64,000 nucleotides of DNA from a virus (taxonomy: Duplodnaviria; Heunggongvirae; Uroviricota; Caudoviricetes), in the IMG/VR virus record IMGVR_UViG_3300035034_002381, positions 1 to 64,000 of that record, one strand, 5' to 3'. Shown here piece by piece: positions 6,523-47,925 of this stretch. The notes beneath the pieces are model-generated. The model saw only the letters and a list, made by a program, of their open reading frames with translations, had not been told where the DNA came from and ran no database searches. Numbering within the stretch: position 1 is the stretch's first letter; every line of letters begins with the position of its first letter. A program made the position numbers and the translations under genes.

Positions 6523-6527
6523 ATGTT

Positions 6528-6576: not shown

Positions 6577-7140
6577 ATGAAAAATGTAAAAAACTTTCGT
6601 GAGTTTCTGAACGAGAATCGAGTCGAAAAGAGATTAGCTAGTCTGGACGCAGAATATACTATTGACAAAAAGTTGTGTAAACAATTAATGGATGTGGGAG
6701 AGCAAATAGATTATATATACAATAATTTAGATTTGCCACACTCTGACTTTGCCACTTCTAATTTTATACCACCCGAAATTGAAAACGATGATAAAACAGC
6801 GAGTGATTGGGTAGAATCTGAGAAGGCTCTTATAAGAAGTGAACTAAAATCTAAAGAATCTGAATATAAAAAAATTCTTAGAAAAATACAATCTAAACAT
6901 TCGTATATTAATGATGTAATTGAATATCTTAATCAAACTAATTTAGGTTTTACTTTAGAAAATACATTTATTGATAAAATAAACAGAAGAAATGATATCA
7001 TAAATACTGTTGTAATAAAAAGTTGGTATGGGTATGCTAAAGCTTCAAGAAAAGAATTAGAAAGATATAAAATAACACCTGAGCAACTTGCAGGTACTAT
7101 ATTATCAATGCGAGCAGTCGCTGATGAACTAACATATTAG
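6577..7140 (+). CDS. hypothetical protein with CTS-like N-terminal leader (MKNVKNFREFLNE)
   Basis: 187-aa ORF; leader resembles the T4 capsid targeting sequence MKTYQEFIAE. Confidence 0.7.
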   Translation: MKNVKNFREFLNENRVEKRLASLDAEYTIDKKLCKQLMDVGEQIDYIYNNLDLPHSDFATSNFIPPEIENDDKTASDWVESEKALIRSELKSKESEYKKILRKIQSKHSYINDVIEYLNQTNLGFTLENTFIDKINRRNDIINTVVIKSWYGYAKASRKELERYKITPEQLAGTILSMRAVADELTY

Positions 7141-7224: not shown

Positions 7225-7425
7225 ATGGAAAGTTTTAAAAGTATACTCGAATCTAAAGATTCTGATAAACTCGCAAAAGAGATCAATAATGCAATCATTA
7301 AAATTGATGATTCTATGTCATACAAAGATTTTGCAGCTGCAGTTATCAAAATAATGAAAGAAGAATACGGAGAACACCTATATACAGAATTCTTAGGAAT
7401 TTTACAAAAAAATCTAAAGAAATGA
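7225..7425 (+). CDS. small hypothetical protein (MESFKSILESK, weak CTS-like)
   Basis: 66-aa ORF; ATGA overlap with the next start. Confidence 0.6.
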   Translation: MESFKSILESKDSDKLAKEINNAIIKIDDSMSYKDFAAAVIKIMKEEYGEHLYTEFLGILQKNLKK

Positions 7426-7790
7426 AGACTTTTAAAGAATTTATAAACGAATCGGAATATATGGTGGTGAATGGAAAGAAAACGCCGAGATAACAGCTAG
7501 ACAATTATCTTCTGGGTTGGTTATTAGCATTGAACCTACAAAAATAAAAGTATTAGTTAGTACATCATCAGAACTAGATATCGATGTTTTAATGTCTAAC
7601 AATGATAAAATTGAATATAGAAGTTATAGACGACTCGCCGTATACAAAACCAGGATCTACACAAAGTTTTATTAGAATAAAACTGAATGGAAAAACTATA
7701 TATGAAGATAAAGGAGCTAATTATGCCGACGCACCAAGTGACGAGATTATTAGAGCTTATGAAGAGGTGTATAAAATTAGATCCAAATAG
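7422..7790 (+). pseudogene. frame-split CTS-family gene (MKTFKEFINESE...)
   Basis: the reading frame passes from frame 0 (7422-7493) to the -1 frame (open 7436 to about 7670) and back to frame 0 (7602-7790); only the first segment has a start codon. Confidence 0.35.
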
Positions 7791-8004: not shown

Positions 8005-8026
8005 TAAAATTTAACATATAGATAAC

Positions 8027-8056: not shown

Positions 8057-8091
8057 TTTATATTTATACTGAATTTAAAAACTCAAAATAA

Positions 8092-8265
8092 ATGTCAAGA
8101 GAAAATATGGATTATATGGGCGATGCAGTCTACGCAGAATACACGGGATGGTCAATTGATTTACGAGTCAATGATCATCGGAATCCTGTCGCTGTCGTTT
8201 TAGAAGAACTAGTCTTACAAAATTTAGTCGATTTTGCTAGACGAAAAGGTCTTAAAATCAAATAA
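8092..8265 (+). CDS. small hypothetical protein
   Basis: 57-aa ORF MSRENMDYMGDAVYAEY..., immediately upstream of 8274. Confidence 0.45.
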   Translation: MSRENMDYMGDAVYAEYTGWSIDLRVNDHRNPVAVVLEELVLQNLVDFARRKGLKIK

Positions 8266-8273
8266 ATTATGAA

Positions 8274-8636: not shown

Positions 8637-8645
8637 ATCTTAACT

Positions 8646-8870
8646 ATGAAAAAGGTAACATTTCTAATTTTAATATTGTTCAACATTAATTTATGGGCAC
8701 AAGAACAACCAGATACAGTTTATGTTCTGAAAAGTTTTACAGTCAAAGGTGTGAGAGCTGATCCTAAAACACCGATCACACAAAAAACAATAGACAAGAA
8801 ATTTATTGAACGCAATTATTTTGGTCAAGAAATTCCTATTCTTTTAAATACCACACCATCAATAAATTAG
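8646..8870 (+). pseudogene. N-terminal fragment of a TonB-dependent receptor (signal peptide plus start of plug domain)
   Basis: MKKVTFLILILFNINLWAQ signal, then VKGVRADPKTPITQKTI...GQEIPILLNTTPSIN; stops after 74 aa, whereas full receptors are 700+ aa. Confidence 0.55.
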
Positions 8871-8949
8871 GTATGGAAAAATCTCAAGACTTTGAACCAA
8901 CCGAACCAGAAGAAATGTATTAAAATAATTGAAAATAACTCTTCCAGAT

Positions 8950-8982
8950 TAAAACTTTTTGATTACTTTTGTATATATACTG
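8950..8982 (+). promoter_or_regulatory. TAAAACTTT ... TATATATA promoter-like motif
   Basis: upstream of a 29-codon ORF and tRNA island 2. Confidence 0.45.
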
Positions 8983-9118
8983 TATATTTAAACAAACAAT
9001 AATGAAAACACAAATCAACATAACTACCAGTTATTCTTTAAGAAGCTTATGTACGTCGCTGAGACTATATGAGACAGGGTATCTATGTTGATCAAACATA
9101 TTTTTGATTACAAACTAA

Positions 9119-9150
9119 ACCCTGTCTATTTAATTAGACAGGGTTTTTTT
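9119..9150 (+). terminator. intrinsic terminator
   Basis: accctgtcta-tttaat-tagacagggt followed by a T7 run. Confidence 0.8.
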
Positions 9151-9154
9151 ATTT

Positions 9155-9245
9155 GGAAGATAAAGCAGCTGCATTGGAGCGGCGACTAGCCTTGAAAACT
9201 AGGTCTCGGAGAAATCTGGGTGGGGTTCGAGTCCTCTGTCTTCCT
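9155..9245 (+). tRNA. tRNA-Ser(TGA)
   Basis: acceptor ggaagat/gtcttcc, anticodon loop ctTGAaa, long variable arm, T gggg-ttcgagt-cctc. Confidence 0.75.
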
Positions 9246-9277
9246 CAAAGTTTTAGTTCATTGACATATTAATATTA

Positions 9278-9361
9278 GAGGATGCGGTAATGGTGGTTAT
9301 TACAGTATCTTGGAAAGGTACCGATCGTTTATTCGGTCAGGGTTCGACTCCCTCATCCTCT
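9278..9361 (+). tRNA. tRNA-Ser(GGA)
   Basis: acceptor gaggatg/catcctc, anticodon arm gtatc-ttGGAaa-ggtac, variable arm gatcg-tttatt-cggtc, T aggg-ttcgact-ccct; ends uncertain by 1 nt. Confidence 0.75.
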
Positions 9362-9365
9362 GCTA

Positions 9366-9488
9366 TGTTCTTCTTAGAATAACTAATTTATGTAAATGTG
9401 AGTTCGAATCTCATCAAATGCTTTTAGCATCTGTAGCCAAATGGTTAGGCAATATACTTGAAATATATAACAAACGATTAGAAGAACA
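9366..9488 (+). ncRNA. circularly permuted tRNA-like element closed by a 9-bp leader-trailer helix
   Basis: order: helix 5' strand tgttcttct, CTTAGAATAACTAATTT, T-arm gtgag-ttcgaat-ctcat, capped acceptor hairpin caaatgc-tttta-gcatctg, ta, D-arm gcc-aaatggtta-ggc, anticodon arm atata-ctTGAaa-tatat, helix 3' strand agaagaaca. Confidence 0.5.
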
Positions 9489-9492
9489 ACAT

Positions 9493-9565
9493 GCTTCCAT
9501 AGTATAAAGGTTCATTATTCCTGTTTTGTAATCAGGCGATATCGGTTCGATTCCGATTGGGAGCT
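9493..9565 (+). tRNA. tRNA-Thr(TGT)
   Basis: acceptor gcttcca/tgggagc, anticodon loop ttTGTaa (31-39 T.T), T atcgg-ttcgatt-ccgat. Confidence 0.75.
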
Positions 9566-9714
9566 CAATGAATATGATGTTTATTTAGATCCTAAAAATG
9601 ATTATCTTATTGGTATAGATAGTAAAAAAATTGAAAAGGTCGAAGAATTGTATAATGTGCGTAATAATAGACAAGGATAATTTATCTTGGAATGATATTC
9701 AAAATAAAATAAAT

Positions 9715-9795
9715 GTTTCAGTGGTGGAATGGTAGACACGTCGGTCTTAGGAACCGATGCCGAAAGGCGTGAGAGTTCGAGTCTCTCCTGGAATA
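9715..9795 (+). tRNA. tRNA-Leu(TAG), canonical class II
   Basis: acceptor gtttcag/ctggaat, D gtgg-aatggtag-acac, anticodon arm tcggt-ctTAGga-accga, variable arm tgccgaaaggcgt, T gagag-ttcgagt-ctctc. Confidence 0.8.
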
Positions 9796-9796
9796 C

Positions 9797-9876
9797 ACTC
9801 TGGTGGATTAGGTAAATTGGTACAGCTAAACGGCTTAGACCCGTATCCCTTCTGGGTTCGAATCCCAGTCAGAGTA
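9797..9876 (+). tRNA. atypical 80-nt tRNA, anticodon TAG (Leu codons), expanded D region, short variable region
   Basis: acceptor actctgg/tcagagt, D region tggattaggtaaattggtacagctaa, anticodon arm acgg-ctTAGac-ccgt, T ctggg-ttcgaat-cccag, A73. Confidence 0.55.
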
Positions 9877-9881
9877 CAAAT

Positions 9882-9961
9882 GCTCCTGTGGTTTATGTAA
9901 ATTGGCACAGCTAAGCGGCTTAAACCCGCAACCTTTATGGGTTCGAGTCCCATCAGGAGTA
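9882..9961 (+). tRNA. atypical 80-nt tRNA, anticodon TAA (Leu codons), same family
   Basis: acceptor gctcctg/caggagt, D region tggtttatgtaaattggcacagctaa, anticodon arm gcgg-ctTAAac-ccgc, T atggg-ttcgagt-cccat, A73. Confidence 0.55.
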
Positions 9962-10056
9962 CAAAAGTTTATCAACGTCTTGAGTCAAGTTGGATGATGA
10001 CAAAAAGGCTAACGGCAGAAGTGAATCCATCGCACTGTGTTACATAAACTTTATCT

Positions 10057-10129
10057 GGCCAGGATTCTCAATTGGACGGGACTCTGTCTTCTAAACAGAT
10101 GTTTGTGGGTTCGAATCCCATCTTGGTCT
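10057..10129 (+). tRNA. tRNA-Arg(TCT)
   Basis: acceptor ggccagg/cttggtc, D tctc-aattggac-ggga, anticodon arm tctgt-ctTCTaa-acaga, T gtggg-ttcgaat-cccat. Confidence 0.85.
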
Positions 10130-10135
10130 CTAAAC

Positions 10136-10209
10136 GCAGGTATACCTAAGTGGTTTAAAGGAGCGGATTGCAAACCCGTTATTCATTGGTTCGAATCCAA
10201 TTACCTGCT
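10136..10209 (+). tRNA. tRNA-Cys(GCA)
   Basis: perfect acceptor gcaggta/tacctgc, anticodon loop ttGCAaa, T attgg-ttcgaat-ccaat. Confidence 0.8.
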
Positions 10210-10214
10210 CACTT

Positions 10215-10297
10215 GGAAGGTAACTTGATGGTGATAGAGGTAGTTTGCTAAACTACTGGCCGTTTACTCGGTCGAGGTTCGATTCCTCTGCCTTCCG
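10215..10297 (+). tRNA. tRNA-Ser(GCT)
   Basis: acceptor ggaaggt/gccttcc, anticodon arm gtagt-ttGCTaa-actac, variable arm ggccg-tttact-cggtc, discriminator G. Confidence 0.8.
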
Positions 10298-10301
10298 CTA
10301 T

Positions 10302-10379
10302 GCTCCTGTGGATTATGTAAAAGCACAGCTAACACCTTGAGGAGGTGATCCTTTGTGGGTTCGAGTCCCGCCAGGAGTA
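10302..10379 (+). tRNA. atypical 78-nt tRNA, anticodon GAG (Leu codons), same family
   Basis: acceptor gctcctg/caggagt, D region tggattatgtaaaagcacagctaa, anticodon arm cacc-ttGAGga-ggtg, T gtggg-ttcgagt-cccgc, A73. Confidence 0.55.
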
Positions 10380-10382
10380 CAA

Positions 10383-10476
10383 AGAAGCAAAGAGTTAGTT
10401 AGGTTAGACTGGCTTGTTATGTGGTGAAATTGGTAAACGCGAGCGCTTTGGTGCTTAGTAACCTTAACACTTCTTA
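10383..10476 (+). ncRNA. tRNA-derived fragment (Leu-type D-arm, no T-arm) flanked by 6-bp complementary ends
   Basis: aagaag/cttctt ends; internal gtggtgaaattggtaaacgc resembles the Leu D-arms at 9715 and 10788. Confidence 0.3.
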
Positions 10477-10479
10477 TTT

Positions 10480-10553
10480 GCTGAGTTAGTATAGTCGGTT
10501 TATTACGATACCCTGGTACGGTATTAACACCAGTTCGATTCTGGTACTCAGCT
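10480..10553 (+). tRNA. tRNA-Thr(GGT)
   Basis: perfect acceptor gctgagt/actcagc, anticodon arm atacc-ctGGTac-ggtat, T accag-ttcgatt-ctggt. Confidence 0.8.
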
Positions 10554-10565
10554 CATGAAAAATAT

Positions 10566-10645
10566 GCCTCTGTGGATTATGTAAATTGGCACAGCTAACG
10601 GTTTCAAACTCCGATCTTTTATGGGTTCGAATCCCATCAGAGGCA
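10566..10645 (+). tRNA. atypical 80-nt tRNA, anticodon CAA (Leu codons), same family
   Basis: acceptor gcctctg/cagaggc, D region tggattatgtaaattggcacagctaa, anticodon arm cgg(t)-ttCAAac-(t)ccg, T atggg-ttcgaat-cccat, A73. Confidence 0.5.
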
Positions 10646-10661
10646 CAAGTAGGAGAAATTT

Positions 10662-10746
10662 AGTCCAGTGGCGAAACAGGTATACGCACAAGATTTAAGC
10701 TCTTGCTTCCATTGAGGAATTGCGGGTTCGATTCCCGCCTGGATTA
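10662..10746 (+). tRNA. tRNA-Leu(TAA), canonical class II
   Basis: acceptor agtccag/ctggatt, D gcga-aacaggtata-cgc, anticodon arm caaga-ttTAAgc-tcttg, long variable arm, T gcggg-ttcgatt-cccgc. Confidence 0.8.
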
Positions 10747-10749
10747 CTA

Positions 10750-10781
10750 AGTTAGTACGGGTTCGATCCCCGTCTTGGCTA
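10750..10781 (+). ncRNA. second tRNA-like minihelix (acceptor-like stem plus T-arm)
   Basis: agttag/ttggct (wobble-rich) enclosing acggg-ttcgatc-cccgt; no D or anticodon arm. Confidence 0.35.
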
Positions 10782-10787
10782 CTAAAT

Positions 10788-10899
10788 TTGACCGTGGTGA
10801 AATTGGTAAACACACCCTTAAATCAGGGAGTATGAGAATATGTACTTGAAGCTGACGCAGAACATCATACATATGTAGGTTCGAATCCTATCGGTCGAA
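10788..10899 (+). ncRNA. 112-nt tRNA-like RNA (Leu-type D-arm) with a roughly 46-nt extra arm
   Basis: acceptor ttgaccg/cggtcga, D gtg-aaattggtaaa-cac, weak anticodon-position hairpin ccct-taaatc-aggg, extra hairpin atatgta...tacatat, T gtagg-ttcgaat-cctat. Confidence 0.45.
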
Positions 10900-10904
10900 C
10901 AAAT

Positions 10905-10978
<74 letters not shown>

Positions 10979-10983
10979 CTATC

Positions 10984-12712: not shown

Positions 12713-14710
12713 ATGAAAAAACTATTACTATTATTAATGCTATTTTCTTCTGTGAATTTATTTTCACAAGAAAATTATTTGATCCTTGATACCATTGGTA
12801 TGGATCAATACGAAAAACAAATTTTTGAGGAAAAAGTAAATTCCCCAGAATCTAACGAAGAGATTTCATGTTTAACCTTATTTGCTGGATCCAGACATGA
12901 ATTTAATTCAAAGTTAAAATCAATTAACGAATCAAAAAGCAATGTTGATATTAACGAAACTATTAGAATTCCCGTTGTTTATCATATTATGCACATTACC
13001 AAATTTGGTCTTGGTGGAGTTCCTTTCGAATCAGGACTAATTAGCAAACAACAAGTGTGGTCTGCTTTGGATGATCATATTAAAGGATTCCAAGCATATG
13101 TTGGGACTCGTCAAGAAACGGGATATGATACTAATATAGAATTTTATTTAGCAAACCTGGATGAAGAAGGAAATTTATTTGACGGTGTTATTTATTATGA
13201 TATGGACACAGTCCCCTGGGTAACTACTGAGGAAAGAGAACAATTTTTTAATTTCGGAATGTTTGGTATTGGACTTGATGATTTCTTAATCAAAAATAAC
13301 ATTTCATTAGACCCTGATAGATATCTAAATGTTTACATTACTCCAGAGATTTCTGGTAATGATGGAGGTAATGGGATCCAAGGATATGCATTTTTTCCAG
13401 GTGGTACTCAAGCACTTTGGGGACAAACAAATTTATCAAATATAGTAGGATTACCTTCAGTAAACTATTATGATGCTGATTTTGATGGTATAATGGACGA
13501 AGGAGTGGGGCCTTTACTTAAACCCAGTGCTCAAGAAAATGATACCCATCCACACGAAACCGGACATAATTTCCGTCTTTATCATACATTCCAAGGACAA
13601 AGTTGTGCAATTGAAGGTAATTGTGATACCCAAGGAGATGGAATCTGTGATACGGAGCCAACCCCACGTAATACCCAATGTAATTATAATGGGTGTCCGA
13701 CTCCTACCCCCGTTTCTAATAAGAATTATATGTCATATTCAGAATGCAGGTTTGAATTTACCGAAGACCAAAACCATGAAATGCGATCTTCTTTCACTGA
13801 AGATCTACCATTACTTGTTAGCAGTATTGATTCGGGATTATGTTATATTCCAAGACAAACCCAAGTTGAAATGATCATCCCACAATCAAACGATATAACA
13901 GGATGTCCCGATTCTCCTTTCCTTTCTTTTACTGTAAGAAACCTAGGTCCTGAAGTTGATTCAACAGGAATCCCGGTTATGTTAACAAATCTTGTTATAG
14001 CTTATGGAAATGATTTGTCTAACGTTGACACGTTTGAATTTAATTTAAATTTAGGTCCTTTCCAATATGATGATTTAGTTTTACCTTCTGTAGATAATCA
14101 AAGTTCAAATAGAAAGATCAAATTACTTTCTGTTAACGGATTTCCGGTAGAAGATTCAAGCACTCTTTCTACTAATCTTCCAGTAGGACCTAATGAATTA
14201 ATTGTAGTTTGCCAACCAAACTGTTCATCAATACAAGATAATTATTGGAAAGTTACAAATTTAAATACTGGAACTATTGCATTCCAAAGTGAATATTATC
14301 CTGTTAATTATTCAGGACCTCCTATCGAAACAAGGATCTGTTTACCTGGAGGCAATTATCAATTTTCATTAATTGATGAATCTGAAAATGGTTGGAATGG
14401 TACTTTTTGTAATCCCGATTTTTTCGATGAACCATTTATGGAAGTTTATTACAATGGATCCTTATGTCAATCTATACAAGGTGATGAATTTAATAGTTCT
14501 GAGTGGTCATTTACAAATTGTAACACTAGTACTCAGGGACTGATTGAAAATGAAGAAGAACCTGTTTTAGAATATGAGTACTATACTCAACAAATGGAAA
14601 GAGTAGAATTTGAAGATATTGTTACAAACCAATTCTTTATAATTTATACTTATGAAAAATCTGAAAGTTCTAGAGAGTTGATCGATAGAGATTGGATCAT
14701 AAAACAGTAA
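12713..14710 (+). CDS. secreted zinc metallopeptidase, M43 (pappalysin/ulilysin-like)
   Basis: signal peptide MKKLLLLLMLFSSVNLFSQ; HETGHNFRLYHTFQG fits the M43 HExxHxxGxxH-type motif; Cys-rich; C-terminal strand-rich tail ending IIKQ resembles a T9SS sorting domain. Confidence 0.7.
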   Translation: MKKLLLLLMLFSSVNLFSQENYLILDTIGMDQYEKQIFEEKVNSPESNEEISCLTLFAGSRHEFNSKLKSINESKSNVDINETIRIPVVYHIMHITKFGLGGVPFESGLISKQQVWSALDDHIKGFQAYVGTRQETGYDTNIEFYLANLDEEGNLFDGVIYYDMDTVPWVTTEEREQFFNFGMFGIGLDDFLIKNNISLDPDRYLNVYITPEISGNDGGNGIQGYAFFPGGTQALWGQTNLSNIVGLPSVNYYDADFDGIMDEGVGPLLKPSAQENDTHPHETGHNFRLYHTFQGQSCAIEGNCDTQGDGICDTEPTPRNTQCNYNGCPTPTPVSNKNYMSYSECRFEFTEDQNHEMRSSFTEDLPLLVSSIDSGLCYIPRQTQVEMIIPQSNDITGCPDSPFLSFTVRNLGPEVDSTGIPVMLTNLVIAYGNDLSNVDTFEFNLNLGPFQYDDLVLPSVDNQSSNRKIKLLSVNGFPVEDSSTLSTNLPVGPNELIVVCQPNCSSIQDNYWKVTNLNTGTIAFQSEYYPVNYSGPPIETRICLPGGNYQFSLIDESENGWNGTFCNPDFFDEPFMEVYYNGSLCQSIQGDEFNSSEWSFTNCNTSTQGLIENEEEPVLEYEYYTQQMERVEFEDIVTNQFFIIYTYEKSESSRELIDRDWIIKQ

Positions 14711-17119: not shown

Positions 17120-19195
17120 ATGAACAAAGATTCTAATGTATTATTAATACTTGAAAGATCTTCATCAAATCTAGATGTTAACAAGGAATCGGGTGATTAT
17201 ATTCTCGAAGGTATTTTTGCTCAATTTGGAGTTGAAAACAATAACAAAAGGATTTATGAGGAAAAAGAGTATTTACCACATCTCGAATACTTAAAAAAGA
17301 AAATTTCAGAAAATCGATTGATGGGAGAACTTGATCACCCAGAAAAATTTGAAATTGCTTTAGACAAAGTATCTCACGTAATTGAGAATATTGAATATGA
17401 TCAAGCAAAACGCCAGATTAAAGGGCGTGTACGTATTTTAGATACGCCATCCGGAAAAATCGCAAAGAGTCTAATCGACTCTAATATTCCTATTAGTATT
17501 TCATCACGAGCTGCTGGTTCTGTGAGTGAAAATAAAACTGTTTCTATTAAGAGAATTTTTACTTATGATTTAGTTGCTGATCCAGGTTTTGAAGATGCAC
17601 AATTATCAAGAATAAATGAATCATTTGGTTTAGACAACGAAAATAATCTACAAATTTTTGATGCTTCTAGATGGGACAACAATTTTTCGTTTGATGAAAA
17701 AGAAAAAGAAAAGCCTGTTGAGGCAATAAAAGAAAATAAAGAAAATACTACAGATATGAAAGAATTTGTGACAATTGAAAGCATGGAACGCTATTCATTA
17801 ATGGTCAAAGAAGAAATTGCTAAAATCAATACACGATTAGAAACTCTGAATGAGAGTAATGCTAATTCTGATGAAACAGCAGAACTTAGAAAAACCGTTG
17901 ATAATTTAGTAGGGTATGTTAATGAAATGGCTACCGAAATTAATCAAAACAGAGAATACATGTCATATACTGCTGAAATGCTTGACGAAAGTATTTCTTG
18001 GTCAGAAAATGAGATCGGTAATCAAGTTACTAAATTAATTGAATATACTGAATCTGAATTGGCTGTTCATCTTGATGGTTTAATTGAACACAATAACTAT
18101 CTTGCAGAAAAATTAAACACGACTATTGGATACGTTAATGAAGAATTGGCTCCAATTTTAGATGAGTCTATTAATCACAATGATTATTTAGTTGAACAAA
18201 TTGCTAATAACCGAAAATATACTGAGTATCTTGCTGAAAATGCTGTAGACTCAACAAATTTTGATTCGTTAGTAGAATATACTGAACATGTATATGAAAA
18301 TGCTGCTGGAAAATTTGAAGGTAAAATTAATGAATCTGCAACTGCTGAGGATGTAATTAAAAAACATAAACTTAAAACACATCACGATGTTGCTAAGTTT
18401 ATAGGAGATTTTTATGATTTACCAGATACAATTAAAGGATCTACCGATAAATTCACATTTAAAGACGTTGAGGACAACGTAATTAAAGTTGATGGTAAAG
18501 CAGGAACAGTAGACGGTAAAAAATTATCTCTGGCGGGATTGGTTGATCTTATGTCAGGTGGTGATTTTGATCTTCTTATTGAAAATCAAGCTAATAAAAT
18601 TAACGAAAATAAAAACGTATCAACAGATATTGAAAATCGATACATGAGTATCAATGAAAAAATTGACGCGGCTCTTGAGCAGATCAAGAAAACAAAGACT
18701 GAAGAAATCACAGAGTCTAAACGTCATCCTTTCACCAAACTACTCAACGAAAGTAATAGAGCTGCTTTCACTGAGTTAGGAAAAACCGAAAAAGAAAAGG
18801 TTTCAAAAGCTCTAAATGAAAACGGTATTTTAAGTACTGTAAAACTTAACGAAAAATTCACTTCATTGTTAGAAGGTAATTTCGAAATTGTTGAAGAGCC
18901 TAAATGGTTATCTGAAGCACCAGACAAGTATAAAGCTATTTTTGAAAGTTTGAATGAGGAAACTCAGGATAAACTTAGAGCTCAAGCTTCATGGTACGAA
19001 GGTAAACTTAAATCTCCTTATCAAATCGAAAATTTCTGGGCAACTAGAGGACTGAACGAAGACGTTGAGTTGAAGAATCTGAAAGACGATGCTGATGTAA
19101 AACTTATTAAAGAAAGTAATGATAGATCTAAAGATCTGGGTTATTCTTCTGATCGAGTTGCTGCAATTAAACAAGGTCTGAAAAGATTCAAATAA
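17120..19195 (+). CDS. prohead core protease (T4 gp21-like) fused to a scaffold-like coiled-coil region
   Basis: LEGIFAQFGVENNNKRIYEEKEY...GELDHP...ISISSRAAGSV parallels T4 gp21 IEGIFMQAEVVNRNKRLYPKR...GELNHP...GVSSRGLGSL; acidic helical C-terminal 450 aa; sits directly upstream of the capsid gene. Confidence 0.8.
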   Translation: MNKDSNVLLILERSSSNLDVNKESGDYILEGIFAQFGVENNNKRIYEEKEYLPHLEYLKKKISENRLMGELDHPEKFEIALDKVSHVIENIEYDQAKRQIKGRVRILDTPSGKIAKSLIDSNIPISISSRAAGSVSENKTVSIKRIFTYDLVADPGFEDAQLSRINESFGLDNENNLQIFDASRWDNNFSFDEKEKEKPVEAIKENKENTTDMKEFVTIESMERYSLMVKEEIAKINTRLETLNESNANSDETAELRKTVDNLVGYVNEMATEINQNREYMSYTAEMLDESISWSENEIGNQVTKLIEYTESELAVHLDGLIEHNNYLAEKLNTTIGYVNEELAPILDESINHNDYLVEQIANNRKYTEYLAENAVDSTNFDSLVEYTEHVYENAAGKFEGKINESATAEDVIKKHKLKTHHDVAKFIGDFYDLPDTIKGSTDKFTFKDVEDNVIKVDGKAGTVDGKKLSLAGLVDLMSGGDFDLLIENQANKINENKNVSTDIENRYMSINEKIDAALEQIKKTKTEEITESKRHPFTKLLNESNRAAFTELGKTEKEKVSKALNENGILSTVKLNEKFTSLLEGNFEIVEEPKWLSEAPDKYKAIFESLNEETQDKLRAQASWYEGKLKSPYQIENFWATRGLNEDVELKNLKDDADVKLIKESNDRSKDLGYSSDRVAAIKQGLKRFK

Positions 19196-19213: not shown

Positions 19214-21007
19214 ATGAAACTTTTAAACGAACAAAAGATCTATGATGAGTGGGCTCCTATGCTAGAGGAGGAAACTTCAATCAAAGATTCTTCAAAATTG
19301 GGATGGATGACTAAATATTGTCACTACCATTCATTAAATGAAGCATTCACTGCACCTGCAGCTGGATTGCTTAACACGCCAGGTATGGGTAATGTAACTC
19401 CTGCTGGAGCTGCTGCCGGTGGTGCTAATGCATTCTACGGAAGTACTACTACTGGTTCAGGAGATAAATTCCCTTCATTATTGCCACTATCTATTCAGGT
19501 AGCTGCAAGAACTGTAGGATTTGATATCGTTCCTGTTATTCCTATGAACGGACCTTCGGGGGTTCTTACATACATGGATTATGTCTATGCTGGTGGAAAA
19601 GGAGCATTCGGAGCACCTCCAGGTGCTGCAGGTGCTGCAAACCCAGGTCTTAACGCTTACGCTGACAAGCCGTTAGTATTCAAAATCCAACTTGTTGGAG
19701 ATGAGAAAACTGCTTTCGATGCTGCTGCTGCGGGTGATGAATTCTTATTTGCTTCTGGTGCACTTGCTGCAACTGGAAACACACTACGTGTTGCTAAAAT
19801 CGGTCCTTCTAGAATCGACGGTCACTCTATTTTTAGAGTAATTGGAGAATCTGGTGATGCTGATGCGACTGGCGGTGCAGCTGCTGCTGTAGCGACAACT
19901 CTTACATCGCCACAATCTATCACATTGGCTTCTGTATTTACAGGAACTGCTGCGATGATTACTGCGGCTGGTGCTTTAGTTGATGCTGCTGATTCAGTAG
20001 TTAATCGTCCAGAACTTGTTAAAGCTCTTGAAGATCACGTTCAAGGTTTTGCTGGTGCAGGTCCAAACGATGATGAAGCATGGTCAGGAAATGCGACTGA
20101 TGGTACTGTATCTTACGAACCAATGCGAAGAGGTGTAGGTGAAGAGCAGTACTTCAGAACTATGGGACTTCAAGCTTTCACGAAATTCATTGAAGCTGAA
20201 ACTTTCCAAGTTGCTGCTAATGTTACTACAGAACAAATTCAAGATTTACAACGTCAGTATGGAATCGATGTGATTGCAATGATCGAGAACTCATTAGTAA
20301 ATGATATCTCTCAATCTATTAACAAGCACATTCTTTCTAGAGCTTTCGCTCTTGGATGGGGTGCAAACCTTACATTCAGAGATGTTGAAGGTGCAAACCT
20401 TAACCTTGAATTGGTAAACACTGGAACTGGTGTTACTGCAACTCCTGCTTACATTGATAAGACTGGAGTAGGTACTGCATCTGTATATCCTGCTTTCCAA
20501 GAATTTGCTGGAGCTGCTGCTGCTGCATCATTGGAAAACCAAGCAACATTCCAACGAAGAGTATATTCTAAAGTACTTGCTGCTGGAAACGTTGTTACTC
20601 AAAGAGGACGTAGAGGACCTGCAAACTTCATTGTTACTAACCTTCAGTTAGCGACAGCGTTGCAAGATTCTGCACAATTCTCTTGGGCACCAATGGCAAA
20701 CACCATTAACCAAAACAACGGTTCGCTTTACCCAGTGGGTACTGTAGCCGGAATGACTGTTTATGTAGATCCTAACATGGGATTCTCTGATAACAGAATT
20801 CTTGTTGGACGTAAAGGTGCTGATGAAGAACCAGGACTTAAATTCATGCCTTACTTAATGGCTGAATCAATCCAAACAATTGCTGAAGGTACAATGGCTC
20901 CGAAAGTTGCCGTAAAATCACGTTATGCTTTAGTTGAAGCTGGACACCACCCAGAAACAATGTACTTTACTATTGCAGTAAATGTACCTGTAGGTGGATT
21001 AGTATAA
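19214..21007 (+). CDS. major capsid protein (T4 gp23-like)
   Basis: 597-aa Ala/Gly-rich ORF; VGFDIVPVIPMNGPSGVL, EQIQDLQRQYGIDV, GRRGPANFIVTN and MTVYVDPNM line up by eye with gp23 blocks; strong terminator downstream. Confidence 0.8.
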   Translation: MKLLNEQKIYDEWAPMLEEETSIKDSSKLGWMTKYCHYHSLNEAFTAPAAGLLNTPGMGNVTPAGAAAGGANAFYGSTTTGSGDKFPSLLPLSIQVAARTVGFDIVPVIPMNGPSGVLTYMDYVYAGGKGAFGAPPGAAGAANPGLNAYADKPLVFKIQLVGDEKTAFDAAAAGDEFLFASGALAATGNTLRVAKIGPSRIDGHSIFRVIGESGDADATGGAAAAVATTLTSPQSITLASVFTGTAAMITAAGALVDAADSVVNRPELVKALEDHVQGFAGAGPNDDEAWSGNATDGTVSYEPMRRGVGEEQYFRTMGLQAFTKFIEAETFQVAANVTTEQIQDLQRQYGIDVIAMIENSLVNDISQSINKHILSRAFALGWGANLTFRDVEGANLNLELVNTGTGVTATPAYIDKTGVGTASVYPAFQEFAGAAAAASLENQATFQRRVYSKVLAAGNVVTQRGRRGPANFIVTNLQLATALQDSAQFSWAPMANTINQNNGSLYPVGTVAGMTVYVDPNMGFSDNRILVGRKGADEEPGLKFMPYLMAESIQTIAEGTMAPKVAVKSRYALVEAGHHPETMYFTIAVNVPVGGLV

Positions 21008-21116: not shown

Positions 21117-22802
21117 ATGAACACTTCAGTCAAAGATATTATAAAAAACGTAAAATCCACCAAAGGTTTAGCAGTAAAAATATCAAATTCAGAAAGTCTA
21201 AATAAAGAACTTTTAGAATTAACCAAATACCTACCAACAGACTCTAGTATATCTGAGCGCATTTATAATATCTTAAATAATATTGATGTACAAAGTCTTT
21301 GTATTTGTGGTGACACATTACCATTCATTAAAATTTCCAAAGGTTACAAAACTTCGTGTGGTAATAAAGAATGTAAGTCGCGAACACGGAGTAATATTAA
21401 TAAAGAATCCAGTAAGAAAATAGACTGGGGCGAATCGATCAATAAACAACAAAAAACCAATTTACAAAAATACGGTTATGTTTCTAATCTTGCATCACCT
21501 AAAGAACGAGAAAAACATAAAGTTATTCTTAAAGAATTGACTGGATATGAACACCCATTACAGAATCCTGAATCTAAAAAGAAAAGACATAACACTTGTA
21601 TAAAAAATCATGGTACATTAAATTTCATCCATTCAAATAAATCAATACAAACGTTACAAGCAAAATATAATACCACTGCCACTAATTGTGCTCAAATACC
21701 CGAAATTCAAGATAGATCTGCCAAAACCCAATCTATAAATGCTGATAAAGCTTTATATCAAAAAATTGATAAAATAAATAAAACTATAATAGATCTTAAT
21801 AAAACAAATGCTAATATTGAGTGTGTGGGTTGTGGTCGTATTATGAATATACATCGGCAAGCACTCAATTATTATATTCGAAATTCTATTGACAATTGTT
21901 GGTCTTGCAACCCTGATTTTTCACCATTTGCCAGTAACAAAGAAAAGATGATTGTTACATGGCTCACTGATATAGGTATCACAAATATTGACACAAATCG
22001 CCGGAGATTTGGTGGTAAAGAAATAGATATTTTCTTAAATGATTATAACCTAGGAATTGAATTCAATGGCACATATTGGCATAGTGAATTACACAAAGAA
22101 AAAAATTACCATTTAAATAAAAAAACATATATTGAGAACTTGGGTTTCAAGTTGATTAATGTTTGGGAAGATGATTGGGAAGATGATATAAAACGTAATA
22201 TAATTCAAAGCAGAATTAAAAATTTAATAAACCTAAATCACCGCAAAATATATGGGCGTAAATGTCAGATAGTTCAAATATCTAACAAAGAAGCTAAAGA
22301 ATTTTATACCAATAATCATATTCAAGGTCATGCTATATCAGAAATTAACTACGCATTAGTATATGATAATGAAATTGTTTCAGTCATGAGCTTTTCTAGT
22401 AAAAATAGATTTTTCATTAAGAAAAATAGGGATAATGAAATAGAGTTGACTAGATTTGCAAATTTGATAGGTGTAAGTGTTTTAGGTGGTTTCTCTAAAC
22501 TATTCAAACATTTTTTGAAAAATAATGACCATGATACCATTATTTCATTTGCAGAATTTGATTGGACTGATGAGACTAATAATGTTTATCTTATGAATGG
22601 TTTTAAATTTTTAGGGAATTCTGGACCATCGTATTCATGGGTTGTTAATGGAAAACGGTTTTCTAGATTTAACTTTTCTAAGCAAAAATTAATCAAAGAA
22701 GGTTATGATAAGAATAAAACAGAAGTCGAAATAATGCACGAAAGAAAATATTATCGAGCTTGGAATAGTGGTAACTTAAAATTTATTTATAATAAATTAT
22801 AA
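21117..22802 (+). CDS. free-standing homing-endonuclease-like protein (PD-(D/E)xK/Vsr-like core plus Hef-like C-terminal region)
   Basis: GGKEIDIFLNDYNLGIEFNGTYWHSE nuclease-like block; C-terminal IYGRKCQIVQISNKEAKEFYTNNHIQG resembles proteins annotated Hef-like; Cys-rich N-terminus; own promoter; inserted between the capsid gene and a relic of its 3' end. Confidence 0.5.
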   Translation: MNTSVKDIIKNVKSTKGLAVKISNSESLNKELLELTKYLPTDSSISERIYNILNNIDVQSLCICGDTLPFIKISKGYKTSCGNKECKSRTRSNINKESSKKIDWGESINKQQKTNLQKYGYVSNLASPKEREKHKVILKELTGYEHPLQNPESKKKRHNTCIKNHGTLNFIHSNKSIQTLQAKYNTTATNCAQIPEIQDRSAKTQSINADKALYQKIDKINKTIIDLNKTNANIECVGCGRIMNIHRQALNYYIRNSIDNCWSCNPDFSPFASNKEKMIVTWLTDIGITNIDTNRRRFGGKEIDIFLNDYNLGIEFNGTYWHSELHKEKNYHLNKKTYIENLGFKLINVWEDDWEDDIKRNIIQSRIKNLINLNHRKIYGRKCQIVQISNKEAKEFYTNNHIQGHAISEINYALVYDNEIVSVMSFSSKNRFFIKKNRDNEIELTRFANLIGVSVLGGFSKLFKHFLKNNDHDTIISFAEFDWTDETNNVYLMNGFKFLGNSGPSYSWVVNGKRFSRFNFSKQKLIKEGYDKNKTEVEIMHERKYYRAWNSGNLKFIYNKL

Positions 22803-22822
22803 TATATACAACATATATACTT

Positions 22823-22864
22823 GTTGAGGCGGGTCACCACCCAGAAACAATGTTCCCTCTTTTT
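22823..22864 (+). repeat. relic copy of the capsid gene 3' end fused to the distal half of its terminator
   Basis: 22823-22853 matches 20933-20963 at 28 of 31 nt, all three differences being synonymous third positions (VEAGHHPETM); 22853-22864 ttccctcttttt equals 21051-21062. Confidence 0.85.
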
Positions 22865-22869: not shown

Positions 22870-22898
22870 TAAAACTTATATTAATCTTAGATATATAA
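22870..22898 (+). promoter_or_regulatory. TAAAACTT ... CTTAGATATATAAA promoter-like motif
   Basis: near-identical to 6528-6556. Confidence 0.55.
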
Positions 22899-22918: not shown

Positions 22919-23111
22919 ATGAAGACATTTAATGAATACGAACAAATCAATGAATCTGGTAATTAAAACTGCACAAAAAATTCAAATAGATCTTAAGAAA
23001 TTTCTTGAAGATGTAGTAATACCAGCATCTAATGGATATGTTAGAAATGAAGGTGATGCAGCTTTATTGTTATACGATATACTTGCACAAAAATATGATA
23101 TTACAACATAG
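22919..23111 (+). pseudogene. frame-split CTS-family gene (MKTFNEYEQINES...)
   Basis: 15-codon ORF with a CTS-like start, then a 53-codon ORF (MNLVIKTAQ...) overlapping it in another frame. Confidence 0.35.
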
Positions 23112-23235
23112 ACGCTATGAATGACGACGAAAAAATATAGTTTAAGTTCCAAATTATAGATTTAGTTAAGAAAAATCCCAACAATGAAAAACTGGGTGAA
23201 AAGATTAGATCTTTTACTAAAAATATGATATAAAG

Positions 23236-23484
23236 ATGAAAAACATAAAAGATTTTGGTGAGTTTAAATTAAATGAAAAAAGAAATGAGGCACTGAAAAA
23301 GGTTAAAACATCTTCGACTGTGCTAGATAATTTTGTTATGGATGTATTAAAAACTCAAAAGCTTTATCAAAACGAAATTCCTAAGCTACTTGCTAATGAT
23401 AAAGAATTAATAACTGAATTCAAAGAAGGTCGACAAGCATTTAATGATCTTCGAATATTAAATGATATGCTTGCAAAGAAATAA
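23236..23484 (+). CDS. CTS-leader small protein (MKNIKDFGEFKLNE)
   Basis: 82-aa ORF. Confidence 0.65.
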   Translation: MKNIKDFGEFKLNEKRNEALKKVKTSSTVLDNFVMDVLKTQKLYQNEIPKLLANDKELITEFKEGRQAFNDLRILNDMLAKK

Positions 23485-23492
23485 ATAATACA

Positions 23493-23702
23493 ATGAAAAA
23501 CTTAAAAACATTTGAACAGTTTGTAACTGATAAGCTAATGGAAGGTGCAATGTCTGATATACATCTTATGGCTAAAAATTCTAAAACTATAGAAAATTTT
23601 ATAAAAGCTTTTTATAAAAAATACGATAATAAAGTCAAGAAGGGAAAAAGCACTGATGAATGGATAATCAGTCTATATAATGATATGGAATCAAAAACAT
23701 AA
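23493..23702 (+). CDS. CTS-leader small protein (MKNLKTFEQFVTD)
   Basis: 69-aa ORF; its first 30 nt are nearly identical to those of 23712. Confidence 0.65.
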   Translation: MKNLKTFEQFVTDKLMEGAMSDIHLMAKNSKTIENFIKAFYKKYDNKVKKGKSTDEWIISLYNDMESKT

Positions 23703-23711
23703 ATACCACTA

Positions 23712-24743
23712 ATGAAAAATTTAAAAACATTTGAACAATTTGAACTAGAAAATCTTAATGAGAAAGTGGGTTATAATCAAATTTCACACAAAAATAAAAG
23801 TTTTGTAGTTTATAATCATAAAGGAATTGAAGATTTATCTAAAAAATATAAAATTGTCAACCTAAAGAATTCTGTAGGACCTGATATAGAATTTCCTGCA
23901 ATAGCAGAATTAGATAATAATAAACCTTTTATTAGAAACATCTATAGACATGAGCTTGATAAATTAGAAAAAGGAATCTTTTTCGAATCCCATAATTTAG
24001 ACAAAGATGCTAAACTTTTTGAATCTGGAGCGATAACTAAAATTTTGACAGATGCAGGATTTATCAGTTTTGAAGACTCTGATGAATATGATTATGATAT
24101 AGGAATAGGTGGAGTAATTAACACTGTTGATCCAGGTATAGCTAAAGATATAGCAGATGAATTAAATGATAATGGTATATCTGCGAAAGCAAAAAGAGAT
24201 ACTGTAATTGTTGAATCTGTGAATGAGGGAATTTACGCTGATAAACTCGCAAAAGGATTATGGGATGGTGACATGGATTTTTCCGATTTAAGTAAAAGTG
24301 AACAAGACTTAATCGACAAGTTCGTCAAAAGAAATCTTGGTATCTTTAAAGACGAAAGATTTGAGATTCCCTTTCCTGATGAAGCTGCTGACACTGGAGA
24401 GTTTTGGGATGAAATTCAAAAAGATAAAGATTACTCAAAATTTGCAAAGGCTGTTAAAAAAGCAAGTTTGGGTGAAATTGAGTTTGTGAACGAATCTATT
24501 AATCAGATTCCTGGAGAAATACAATTTAATGTTGAACCACATACGTTTCTTAAAGATCCTAGAGAACTAGACAAAGCAGTAGCTGAAGTTGATAAATATT
24601 TAGCGGGCGGTAAAGAAAACATTGGCGGATTTATGATAGATCGATATTTAAAAGATTCTTTTGATCTTGATGCGTTTATTGACTCTGTGCATTTACATTA
24701 CCCTAGACCAATGATTCCTGAAATTCAATCCAAGAATCTATGA
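23712..24743 (+). CDS. CTS-leader protein (MKNLKTFEQFELEN)
   Basis: 343-aa acidic ORF. Confidence 0.75.
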   Translation: MKNLKTFEQFELENLNEKVGYNQISHKNKSFVVYNHKGIEDLSKKYKIVNLKNSVGPDIEFPAIAELDNNKPFIRNIYRHELDKLEKGIFFESHNLDKDAKLFESGAITKILTDAGFISFEDSDEYDYDIGIGGVINTVDPGIAKDIADELNDNGISAKAKRDTVIVESVNEGIYADKLAKGLWDGDMDFSDLSKSEQDLIDKFVKRNLGIFKDERFEIPFPDEAADTGEFWDEIQKDKDYSKFAKAVKKASLGEIEFVNESINQIPGEIQFNVEPHTFLKDPRELDKAVAEVDKYLAGGKENIGGFMIDRYLKDSFDLDAFIDSVHLHYPRPMIPEIQSKNL

Positions 24744-24937
24744 ATGAAGCTAGTCATAAAAATGATTTTCTTGATTTTTTCCGAGTTCCTGATTCTAAAA
24801 GGTTAAAATTTGCAATTTATAAATTTGATGGTAATGACGATATGGATGATTTATTTGATGATCTTAAACCTTATGCATCGACAGTTGATGAGGTTAGAAA
24901 CTATTATGAAATAGCAACAAAAACACGCGATAATTAA
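24740..24937 (+). CDS. small acidic hypothetical protein
   Basis: 65-aa ORF, ATGA overlap. Confidence 0.55.
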   Translation: MNEASHKNDFLDFFRVPDSKRLKFAIYKFDGNDDMDDLFDDLKPYASTVDEVRNYYEIATKTRDN

Positions 24938-25806
24938 TGAACTTTAAAACATATTCACATCTGAAGGAAATTCTTCATGAAAGTGAAAATTATCAAGAAG
25001 TAATACATGAAGCTTTTGAATGGATTGAGGATGATTCTATTTTTGAGGCATACGCGTGGGCTTTTATTAAAAGCCCTGTTAAAGTGACTAAAATGTTTAC
25101 TAATCAAAATAAGCTTACAAAATCTTTAATTAGTCAGGCTGTTATTGATATTGATCTACAGAATCGTAAAGAAGCTGCTAAAAAAATATCTGACCCACAG
25201 AAAGCCAAAAACCAGAGAGAAAAACTCCAACAAGCTCATGACATAAAGAAAAAGGGTTTATCCGATAAAATCAGTGGTATAAAACAAAGAATTGATGATT
25301 TAGCTGGTAGTGATTCTAAACTTCAAGAATTGGCTTCAAATTTAAAAACTAAATCTGGATTAGCTGCTGCAGAGAAATTAATTAAGGCAGCTGATGGGGC
25401 AGAACAGAAAGAATTACAAATTAAGATTAGAAAAAGTAAAGAAAAACTTTCGAGACAAGAAAACATTTTTAAAGAATATGAGTCTAATCTTTCTACTGAG
25501 GATAAAGCTAAAGGTCAAGAACAAGCTAAAACTGCTAAATCTGAAGACGATGGAAAATCTGATTCTACTAAAAAGGATGCAGAGTCTTCTATTGAGGAAA
25601 AAATCGAGGCGGAAAAGGATGCAATTAACGATTTAGTTAGAGAATTTAATGGGAAGAAAAAGAAAATTGCAGAAGCTAGAAAAAGATCGCATATTACACA
25701 AGCAAAATTTGATGAGTTAATGAAAAATCTCATGAAAGAAGGTCACCAAGAAAAAATTGATGTTCATAAAAAGAACATTATAGATTTAAAAAAGAATAGC
25801 AAATAA
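24937..25806 (+). CDS. Lys/Glu-rich coiled-coil protein (weak CTS-like start MNFKTYSHLKEILHE)
   Basis: 289-aa ORF, TAATG overlap. Confidence 0.7.
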   Translation: MNFKTYSHLKEILHESENYQEVIHEAFEWIEDDSIFEAYAWAFIKSPVKVTKMFTNQNKLTKSLISQAVIDIDLQNRKEAAKKISDPQKAKNQREKLQQAHDIKKKGLSDKISGIKQRIDDLAGSDSKLQELASNLKTKSGLAAAEKLIKAADGAEQKELQIKIRKSKEKLSRQENIFKEYESNLSTEDKAKGQEQAKTAKSEDDGKSDSTKKDAESSIEEKIEAEKDAINDLVREFNGKKKKIAEARKRSHITQAKFDELMKNLMKEGHQEKIDVHKKNIIDLKKNSK

Positions 25807-26081
25807 TGAAAAAGGCAAGAACATTTACAGAATTTAATGAGTCTATATCAAACGAAGAAGAACTAAATGAAGCAGTCGATGTATTTATCGCAATTGCTGA
25901 AGCTTTAGACGTAAGTTTAGATGTCGCAAAAATGATAGTAGCTTTGGCAGGAGTCACCGGAACAGTAACTTTCGCAGCAGCAATGACAAAAATCCAAGAT
26001 GTATTGGCAAAGAAAAATCCTAAATTATCTAAGAAATTAGGTGATATTACAAAAGGAGCAAATAACGCGAGAACACAATAG
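25806..26081 (+). CDS. CTS-leader small protein (MKKARTFTEFNES)
   Basis: 91-aa ORF with a hydrophobic central segment. Confidence 0.6.
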   Translation: MKKARTFTEFNESISNEEELNEAVDVFIAIAEALDVSLDVAKMIVALAGVTGTVTFAAAMTKIQDVLAKKNPKLSKKLGDITKGANNARTQ

Positions 26082-47730: not shown

Positions 47731-47925
47731 ATGAAAAGTTTCAAAAAAGTCTTAGAAAACAAAGAAGCTGATAAGCTATATACTTTAAAACTGGACTTGA
47801 TCAGTTGGTGGAAAGAAAATTCAAGTAAACCAAATGTTATAAAAAAGAGAAAAAACATTCAAGGTAAAATTGATCAAGTAGTAAAATTATTAGATGAAGT
47901 TGTAGATGAAACTTATGAAAAGTAA
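47731..47925 (+). CDS. small protein (weak CTS-like MKSFKKVLENKE)
   Basis: 64-aa ORF. Confidence 0.55.
   Translation: MKSFKKVLENKEADKLYTLKLDLISWWKENSSKPNVIKKRKNIQGKIDQVVKLLDEVVDETYEK

Follow-up and report, generated by a model that had tools for sequence, protein, structure and literature searches.

T4-like capsid targeting leaders on a variable set of candidate packaged proteins in an uncultured large phage

Introduction

Mullaney and Black reportedly described, in 1996, the capsid targeting sequence (CTS) of the internal proteins (IPs) of phage T4. We analyzed a family of genes starting with a similar leader in a 64,000-nt stretch of phage DNA (positions 1 to 64,000 of IMG/VR record IMGVR_UViG_3300035034_002381, Caudoviricetes; hereafter, the window), which covers nearly all of a 64,373-bp metagenomic contig. 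We describe the leader motif and its position specificity, the family of the prohead protease, the matching site motif in the scaffold and capsid proteins, the variability of the leader genes between strains, and their wider distribution. On balance, we consider the leader likely to be a capsid targeting propeptide of the T4 type, here within a distant clade, by which variable proteins would be loaded on the prohead core, trimmed, and probably injected.

The CTS is carried by the T4 internal proteins IPI, IPII, and IPIII and by Alt (reviewed in PMC9026906 and PMC3012670). In mutagenesis of the T4 CTS, targeting depended mainly on residues 4 and 7 (Y and F) and processing on residues 8 and 10 (I and E), and Asp at position 10 blocked processing but not targeting (PMC9026906). 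The IP loci of T-even phages are polymorphic; IP genes are replaced between T2, T4, T6, and their relatives, and only the CTS is kept (PMC3012670, PMC9026906). T4 IPI* provides a precedent for an anti-defense role (PMC3012670).

Other phages and mobile elements deliver proteins with their DNA by different means. The inner-body and ejection proteins of phiKZ, 201phi2-1, and SPN3US carry propeptides, mostly of more than 100 residues, which are cut at (S/A/G)-x-E (PMC5694885, PMC7411985, PMC10052503). Loading of the Dar proteins of P1 follows a hierarchy of protein–protein dependencies (Hdf, DarA) (PMC9024508, PMC12810830). The polyvalent proteins of phages and conjugative elements combine several effector modules per polypeptide, are delivered together with DNA, and are processed by proteases (PMC5512222).

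Leader genes of the window

The long open reading frames (ORFs) of the window are all on the + strand, and its GC content is ~31%. An initial annotation had listed eleven N-termini as a family of ten or more leader genes. All 11 were found at their coordinates on the + strand, but two of them (7422 and 22919; genes are named by their first position) were frame-broken stubs, and a 65-aa ORF at 24740, which belongs to the set, was missing from the list. Class-1 leaders, MK[NT](xK)x[FY]x[EQ]F..NE, are carried by eight genes, class-2 leaders, M[EK]SFKxxLE[SN]K[DE]xDKL, by two, and a third variant by one. A slash marks the predicted cut.

6577..7140, + strand: class-1 gene, 187 aa, MKNVKNFREFLNE/N; 3' of a terminator and a GATATATA box
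7225..7425, + strand: class-2 gene, 66 aa, MESFKSILE/SKDSDKL; conserved small protein
7422..7673, + strand: broken class-1 gene, MKTFKEFINE/SE...; stop after 23 aa at 7493, -1 frame carrying on to 7673
22919..23111, + strand: broken class-1 gene, MKTFNEYEQINE/SGN; 15 aa, stop at 22966, body in the +1 frame at 22932-23111; GATATATA box at 22890
23236..23484, + strand: class-1 gene, 82 aa, MKNIKDFGEFKLNE/K; predicted mature part basic (pI 9.5)
23493..23702, + strand: class-1 gene, 69 aa, MKNLKTFEQFVTD..KLME/G; Asp at the usual leader Glu, next hydrophobic-x-E at residue 17
23712..24743, + strand: class-1 gene, 343 aa, MKNLKTFEQFELENLNE/K; modular, polyprotein-like, with internal SVNE/G and FVNE/S junctions
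24740..24937, + strand: 65-aa ORF, MNE/AS; C-terminal module of the 343-aa gene, split off
24937..25806, + strand: third leader variant (MNFKTY...), 289 aa, MNFKTYSHLKEILHE/S; basic, Lys/Glu-rich, predicted mature pI ~9
25806..26081, + strand: class-1 gene, 91 aa, MKKARTFTEFNE/S...ELNE/A; hydrophobic central segment
46797..47360, + strand: class-1 gene, 187 aa, MKNLKSYENFENQLLE/N; acidic ORFan; 3' of a terminator and a GATATATA box
47731..47925, + strand: class-2 gene, 64 aa, MKSFKKVLE/NKEADKL

The leaders are about 9–17 residues long. All eight class-1 leaders have the aromatic pair [FY]xx[FY], as does 24937 (F3, Y6), the leader peptide MKNLKTFEQFLNE carries F7 and F10, and every member of the window has a hydrophobic-x-E site inside residues 9–17. 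The 343-aa protein (23712) is acidic, with a net charge of -21, and contains several internal hydrophobic-x-E sites. The two class-2 proteins share 62% identity across their first 16 residues, and homologues of 7225 (48–54% identity) were found in four other leader-rich loci (L056, L060, L068, and L086). The broken genes 7422 and 22919 are either decaying genes (pseudogenes) or assembly frameshifts, with breaks at ~7480 and ~22960; decay would fit a rapid turnover of the set.

Comparison with the T4 signal

In the T4 record, ipII and ipIII begin with MKTYQEFIAE/A, and ipI begins with MKTFKEF. The resemblance to the T4 CTS that had been proposed for the leader was borne out; the first seven residues of 7422 (MKTFKEFINE/S) are those of T4 ipI. 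The four functional positions of T4 correspond to [FY]-x-x-F-[LI]-x-E, which is the core kept by the leaders of the window and by those retrieved from IMG/VR. Both systems have an extreme N-terminal leader of 10–20 residues with nearly the same sequence, in which an aromatic pair at i and i+3 is followed by hydrophobic-x-Glu. In both, a gp21-family protease and a gp23-type capsid protein are encoded in one genome, and the leader is found on unrelated, poorly conserved cargo.

The window differs from T4 in that its commonest leader form, MKNLKTFEQF(L)NE, extends the T4 signal by three residues (MKN-LK-TFEQFLNE), the position before Glu shows a strong preference for Asn, and the scaffold is fused to the protease. 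Cargo genes are far more numerous, with 8–12 in the 64 kb of the window and as many as ~16 within 14 kb of a relative, and some cargo proteins are multi-module with internal junction sites. The window phage also belongs to a distant clade and is known here from sequence alone. In Pfam and PHROG comparisons, the mature parts of the leader proteins showed no meaningful homology to T4 IPI, IPII, or IPIII, and none of the window cargo was homologous to any T-even IP. A link to the GmrSD restriction system and glucosyl-hydroxymethylcytosine DNA, which had been raised from T4 IPI*, found no support in this analysis.

Position specificity and peptide-level conservation

The leader pattern without its initial Met matched six times across the six frames of the window, and all six matches were located right after the start Met of an ORF. 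A position matrix trained solely on leaders of other contigs was scored on 59,279 six-frame positions of the window, and leader sites took ranks 1–4. The sequences downstream of the leaders had been described as unrelated to each other, in agreement with all-vs-all BLASTP, in which the first ~18 residues accounted for most of the similarity; the pairs 23236/23493 and 23493/46797 gave weak alignments of greater length, both of which began at the leader. As the codons vary synonymously among leaders, the conservation is at the peptide level. Chance or a compositional artefact was ruled out by this conservation and by the position specificity. A second hydrophobic-N-E was present in residues 14–25 five times, compared with 1.1 expected.

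The gene 6577, an exception to the ORFan status of the set, has six distant homologues with body identities of 25–37%. Their leaders were 54–77% identical in five of the six and 33% identical in the most diverged one (4–10 of 12–13 positions), and E13 was invariant.

These comparisons also bear on whether the leader could reflect DNA-level copying of a 5' cassette (promoter and first codons) with no peptide function. A similar terminator-plus-box segment lies upstream of 6577, 22919, and 46797, and homing-endonuclease-linked exchange adjoins the main cluster, as copying of this kind would predict. However, the other leader genes have unrelated sequences upstream, the leader codons differ synonymously, and the leader is kept in the homologues of 25–37% body identity and over contigs of 22–45% GC. 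We therefore disfavor cassette copying as a very improbable explanation.

Prohead protease, scaffold, and capsid protein

A gp21-like protease had been noted at 17120, and this assignment was confirmed by a Peptidase_S77 match in Pfam (5.3e-12, cut-off passed) to residues 17–139 of the product. The capsid gene follows.

17120..19195, + strand: prohead protease (gp21 family) fused to a scaffold/core region, 691 aa; Peptidase_S77, Peptidase_S80; PHROG head maturation protease (3e-40)
19214..21007, + strand: gp23-type major capsid protein; Pfam Gp23 (4e-35); predicted propeptide junction HSLNE/AF at residue 43

The scaffold part contains 10 occurrences of [LI]NE compared with 1.0 expected from shuffles and 12 of hydrophobic-N-E compared with 1.8, giving an enrichment of 7–10-fold. 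Two [LI]NE occurrences were found in the N-terminus of the capsid protein, one of which is the HSLNE/A junction, and this junction is kept as LNE/[AS] in relatives of 53–71% identity. The closest capsid proteins in the phage collection came from LR756500, an uncultured huge phage (43%), from Prevotella Lak phages (40%), and from Tenacibaculum phage PTm1 (31%).

All nine protease–scaffold homologues examined were ~2-fold enriched in hydrophobic-x-E, and Asn at P2 was dominant in the window, two related contigs (L033 and L065), and PTm1. The scaffold of another contig, L002, had no hydrophobic-N-E enrichment, and the sole leader found there ends in VLE. As the motif is enriched in scaffolds and present at the capsid junction, we infer that the protease cuts at hydrophobic-x-Glu and prefers Asn at x, and the leaders end in that motif. 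The product of 17120 is presumed to be both the processing enzyme and the docking partner of the leaders.

Strain variability and modular organization

The main cluster had been placed right after the capsid gene. It does lie downstream of that gene, but a homing-endonuclease-like gene intervenes.

21117..22802, + strand: homing-endonuclease-like gene, 561 aa; weak Pfam matches to MTES_1575 REase and DUF7487

Four contigs (L027–L030) are ~99% identical to the window, and the differences are concentrated on the leader system. The proposal of a diversifying set is thus upheld, with gain and loss of both leader genes and modules between 99%-identical strains. A 2.6-kb segment of the window containing the endonuclease gene and 22919, 23236, and 23493 is missing from all four contigs, with a TATATAAT microhomology marking the junction. 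Two different leader genes, starting with MKNIKSFEEFLYE/G and MKNFNDFLNE/G, are inserted in the tRNA region of L027 (inside the third tRNA group). The 343-aa gene of the window has an extra 66-codon (198-nt) module relative to a 99% strain. Compared with L027, in which the two are fused (…PESMNE/ASY…), an insertion of 14 nt and a deletion of 18 nt separate the ORF at 24740 from this gene. An 83-aa insert in the scaffold (18363-18607), missing from L027, follows KINE/SATAEDV and ends in KINE/; it looks like a cargo-like module between two cleavage-type sites.

Sites of the xNE/ type coincide with module boundaries at the 198-nt module, the split MNE/A module, the INQIPGE domain, and the 83-aa scaffold insert. 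The conserved INQIPGE domain is found in more distant relatives always after xNE/S, with differing N-terminal modules. The homologue of 24937 in contig L031 starts with MNFNTY...ETLNE/D, followed by the conserved domain that it shares with 24937.

Homologues of the endonuclease gene occupy the same post-capsid place in LR756500 and Lak-A2, and the annotation of PTm1 gives a Hef-like homing endonuclease there. Behind the endonuclease gene of the window lies a remnant (22819-22860; LVEAGHHPETM), in which a duplicated 3' end of the capsid gene is joined to the right arm of that gene's terminator. In another lineage (L013–L025), the 3' ends of the capsid genes show 97% identity to this remnant, whereas only ~27 of 33 positions match the window's own gene. 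As it is nearer to the capsid ends of that lineage, the remnant suggests an endonuclease-linked exchange between lineages.

As in the T-even IP loci, the leader is kept while the bodies are swapped, very close strains differ, and the setting is arms-race-like. Here, however, the turnover also occurs within one ORF, within the scaffold gene, and beside a homing endonuclease.

Wider distribution of the leader

A degenerate DNA pattern for MK[NTK]xKxFx[EQ]F[LIF]NE was searched in IMG/VR and retrieved 77 stretches, most on contigs of 60–256 kb with GC contents of 22–45%. They correspond to 66 unique proteins, in all of which the pattern is at the ORF start with few open codons upstream. The 60 complete proteins fall into 34 unrelated body families, and F7 and F10 are invariant among their leaders, partly by construction of the search pattern. 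The protease–scaffold gene was within ~10 kb of the leader in nine loci, and four loci have the capsid gene. A stricter leader pattern retrieved seven viral stretches; it had no match in 596 Gb of bacterial and archaeal genomes and gave no host or prophage clue.

The tagged cargo of the relatives includes Tad3 (4.8e-22), Acb1-like 2H phosphoesterases, GNAT acetyltransferases, DUF285 repeat proteins, and a zeta-toxin-like kinase. For Acb1, one protein of the related contigs reached 27.3 bits (cut-off, 27), and five others matched as well (best E-value, 1.7e-7). The 80-kb contig L056, which belongs to the same broad clade as the window by its helicase, has an array (2861-10817) of ~16 consecutive genes starting with MK[KH][IV]KL[FY]E[EQ]F.NE; over a run of 27 consecutive genes in this locus, ~16 are tagged. 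This array resembles an anti-defense island and encodes Tad3, DUF5824, a zeta-toxin-like kinase, and a 2H phosphoesterase of the Acb1-like type.

A tag on so many genes, including enzymes with ordinary cytoplasmic roles, would be expected if the leader were a general N-terminal module acting outside the capsid, such as a translation initiation boost in hosts without Shine-Dalgarno pairing, a helix docking to another phage factor, or a propeptide keeping the protein inactive while still in the producing cell. Enrichment of AAA/AAT at codons 2 and 3 and the A-rich stretches 5' of the starts would also fit initiation in a low-GC host. However, effects on translation do not explain why F..F and NE are kept through synonymous changes. 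Such effects also leave unexplained the identity with the experimentally defined T4 signal at exactly its four functional positions, the match of the terminal motif to the scaffold sites and the capsid junction, and the excess of a second hydrophobic-N-E in residues 14–25. We regard a role outside the capsid as unlikely.

Cargo of the window

The leader proteins of the window matched no Pfam or PHROG family at a meaningful score and no known anti-defense family (Acb1, Tad3, and others in Pfam). No match to the 343-aa protein was found by tblastn in 50,697 phage records. In a search of 5.8 billion proteins, the window cargo retrieved only strain variants or itself, and 46797 retrieved only itself. 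A 2H-phosphoesterase region of Maribacter phage Molly was rejected as a candidate, as its tblastn match starts at query residue 39, past the leader.

The cargo had been proposed to consist of anti-defense effectors. The same leader occurs on Tad3 and Acb1-like proteins in related phages, while no window protein matches such a family. An anti-defense role of the window proteins is plausible by analogy, the precedents being T4 IPI* and the tagged Tad3 and Acb1-like proteins of the relatives.

Alternatively, the leader proteins could be accessories of the prohead core or scaffold, similar to T4 gp67, gp68, and gp22, which would be targeted, cut, and then broken down to peptides, either lost or retained merely as small internal fragments, rather than delivered as functional effectors. 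The acidic 343-aa protein with its internal hydrophobic-x-E sites and the scaffold-like, Lys/Glu-rich 289-aa protein have the expected character, and 7225 is conserved, small, and located beside leader genes in four other loci. In L002, the leader gene is directly 5' of the protease–scaffold and capsid genes, which is the position of T4 genes 67 and 68. Core accessories are expected to be conserved, yet the leader genes are mostly ORFans that vary among strains of 99% identity. Moreover, the relatives carry the leader on folded enzymes and inhibitors (Acb1-like, Tad3, GNAT, and kinase), which would be sensible only if these proteins survived. For the set as a whole, degradation as core accessories appears improbable, although it may well hold for some members.

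The GATATATA box and expression

The + strand of the window has 11 copies of the GATATATA box and the - strand has one. Eight of the 11 are at most 45 nt 5' of a start codon, where 5.5% of positions qualify.

6547, 17091, 22890 (22890..22897), and 46766, + strand: promoter-like GATATATA boxes before leader genes or the protease gene
50448, 52026, 56093, and 62590, + strand: GATATATA boxes of the tail/baseplate region, preceding genes 50463, 52053, 56105, and 62635

The GATATATA(A) boxes are located 10–45 nt 5' of the starts, often after a hairpin and a T-run. They precede the leader genes 6577, 22919, and 46797, as well as the protease–scaffold gene, and neighbors of the four tail/baseplate box genes match tail-sheath and baseplate PHROGs. 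No + strand terminator was found between 22919 and 26500. The box is probably the late promoter of the window phage. As a packaging signal needs co-expression with virion genes, a box shared with such genes fits this role of the leader. A sigma-70 promoter scan of the window was not above shuffles, and a longer upstream word, TTTATGTTTAAAAC, was not enriched.

Proposed mechanism

If the leader is a T4-type capsid targeting propeptide, the leader genes would be transcribed together with the head and tail genes. During prohead assembly, the aromatic pair [FY]-x-x-F would dock each protein onto the protease-fused scaffold core. After closure of the shell, the protease would cut after the Glu of hydrophobic-x-Glu, mostly hydrophobic-Asn-Glu, and remove the leader; the same protease would cut multi-module proteins at their internal junctions. 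The freed cargo would remain in the head with the DNA and enter the next host cell alongside it. The cargo set would be accessory and quickly turned over, and many of the cargoes would probably be host-takeover or anti-defense proteins, by analogy with T4 IPI* and the tagged Tad3 and Acb1-like proteins.

Several points weigh against this mechanism. We infer every step after transcription, from docking and cleavage to retention, ejection, and function. The cargo bodies are not clearly depleted in cleavage-type sites (observed/expected ratio of 0.99 for hydrophobic-x-E compared with 1.15–1.18 in controls), and hydrophobic-N-E is not depleted in them. Lineages of 52–55% capsid identity carry different, weaker leaders on post-capsid genes; five such genes have other short leaders ending in hydrophobic-x-E. 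No relation was found between the window post-capsid proteins and these five post-capsid families in profile–profile comparisons (probabilities of at most 3.3%). Structure models of 46797 (single sequence, mean pLDDT 35) and 23712 (4-sequence alignment, 37) were unusable. The late class of the GATATATA box is read solely from the genes behind it, and the number and variety of cargoes in L056 would be compatible with a tag that acts elsewhere than in the capsid.

Comparison with other delivery systems

phiKZ, 201phi2-1, and SPN3US are, like the window phage, large phages with a gp21-related protease cutting after Glu in a short motif. Their propeptides contain several redundant sites, and many of their internal proteins are ejected. 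They have no shared portable tag, in contrast to the short, shared, T4-like tag ending in hydrophobic-N-E described here. With 9–17 residues and a hydrophobic P3, the window leaders are not long propeptides of the phiKZ/SPN3US type.

P1 Dar and other virion-packaged anti-restriction proteins are similar in that anti-defense proteins are loaded in the head and delivered with DNA, but P1 has no common cleavable N-terminal tag. Polyvalent proteins likewise contain multiple modules in one polypeptide. However, they are very large, with recognizable enzymatic domains and their own processing peptidases, whereas the window modules are ORFan, comprise 60–90 residues, and are bounded by sites of the prohead-protease type.

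In the searchable literature, the leader strings were found in no paper besides those on the T4 CTS itself. The T4 mechanism, if it is the right one here, and the variable T-even IP loci are already known (PMC3012670, PMC9026906). The novelty lies in an almost identical tag within a remote large-phage clade, the scale, the module junctions, and the presence of the tag on known anti-CBASS and anti-Thoeris families.

Host and genome context

The regions 5' of the start codons of the window are A-rich and without an obvious Shine-Dalgarno sequence. As these starts are accompanied by a Bacteroidota-style signal peptide on a secreted peptidase, the host of the window phage is likely to belong to Bacteroidota. 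The synteny with LR756500, Lak-A2, and PTm1 was compared around the capsid gene, and no class-1 leader cluster comparable to that of the window was found around it in these three phages.

Other features of the window are as follows.

229-1094, 3901-4355, and 9277-10979: 21 tRNA genes in three groups
1201-2661: 486-aa membrane protein with an SPFH/Band 7 domain, between tRNA groups
12713-14710: 665-aa protein with a Bacteroidota-like signal peptide and a Peptidase_M43 domain; the surrounding 2.3-kb segment is missing from the 99% strain L027
26086-26505: SET-domain protein (Pfam, 4e-11) directly 3' of the leader cluster and itself without a leader; kept at 34% identity beside leader genes in contigs L001 and L003
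26960-33455: block encoding an NTP-transferase fusion, a family-2 glycosyltransferase, Methyltransf_21, Pyr_excise (T4 denV-like), and an Rv2179c-like exonuclease

The families of the last block were taken from precomputed Pfam hits on a strain contig, and the block may have a role in DNA or virion glycan modification.

Implications

If the tag works as in T4, it would provide a sequence rule predicting the packaged and injected ORFans of uncultured large phages, a class of proteins otherwise found solely by virion proteomics. It would also yield a short list of fast-evolving candidates for host takeover or anti-defense, comprising those of the window and no fewer than 34 additional body families, among which are already Acb1-like and Tad3 homologues. 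Ready-made delivery of CBASS and Thoeris inhibitors would then be conceivable, which is a testable idea, and the tag might serve as a general tool to load foreign proteins into other phage heads.

More tentatively, the leader may be a portable head-loading code across the clade of large and huge phages related to LR756500, Lak, and PTm1, serving dozens of interchangeable effectors, including Acb1-like anti-CBASS and Tad3 anti-Thoeris proteins and small polyproteins cut into modules by the protease at hydrophobic-N-E; we consider this extension possible but doubtful. In that case, these phages would disable signaling-based immunity ahead of any expression of their own genes, and the 13-residue tag would be a sequence-only handle to mine anti-defense proteins from metagenomes. 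If the T4-type reading is true, the capsid-loading signal of T4 would be ancient and nearly unchanged over very distant phages of the gp23/gp21 type.

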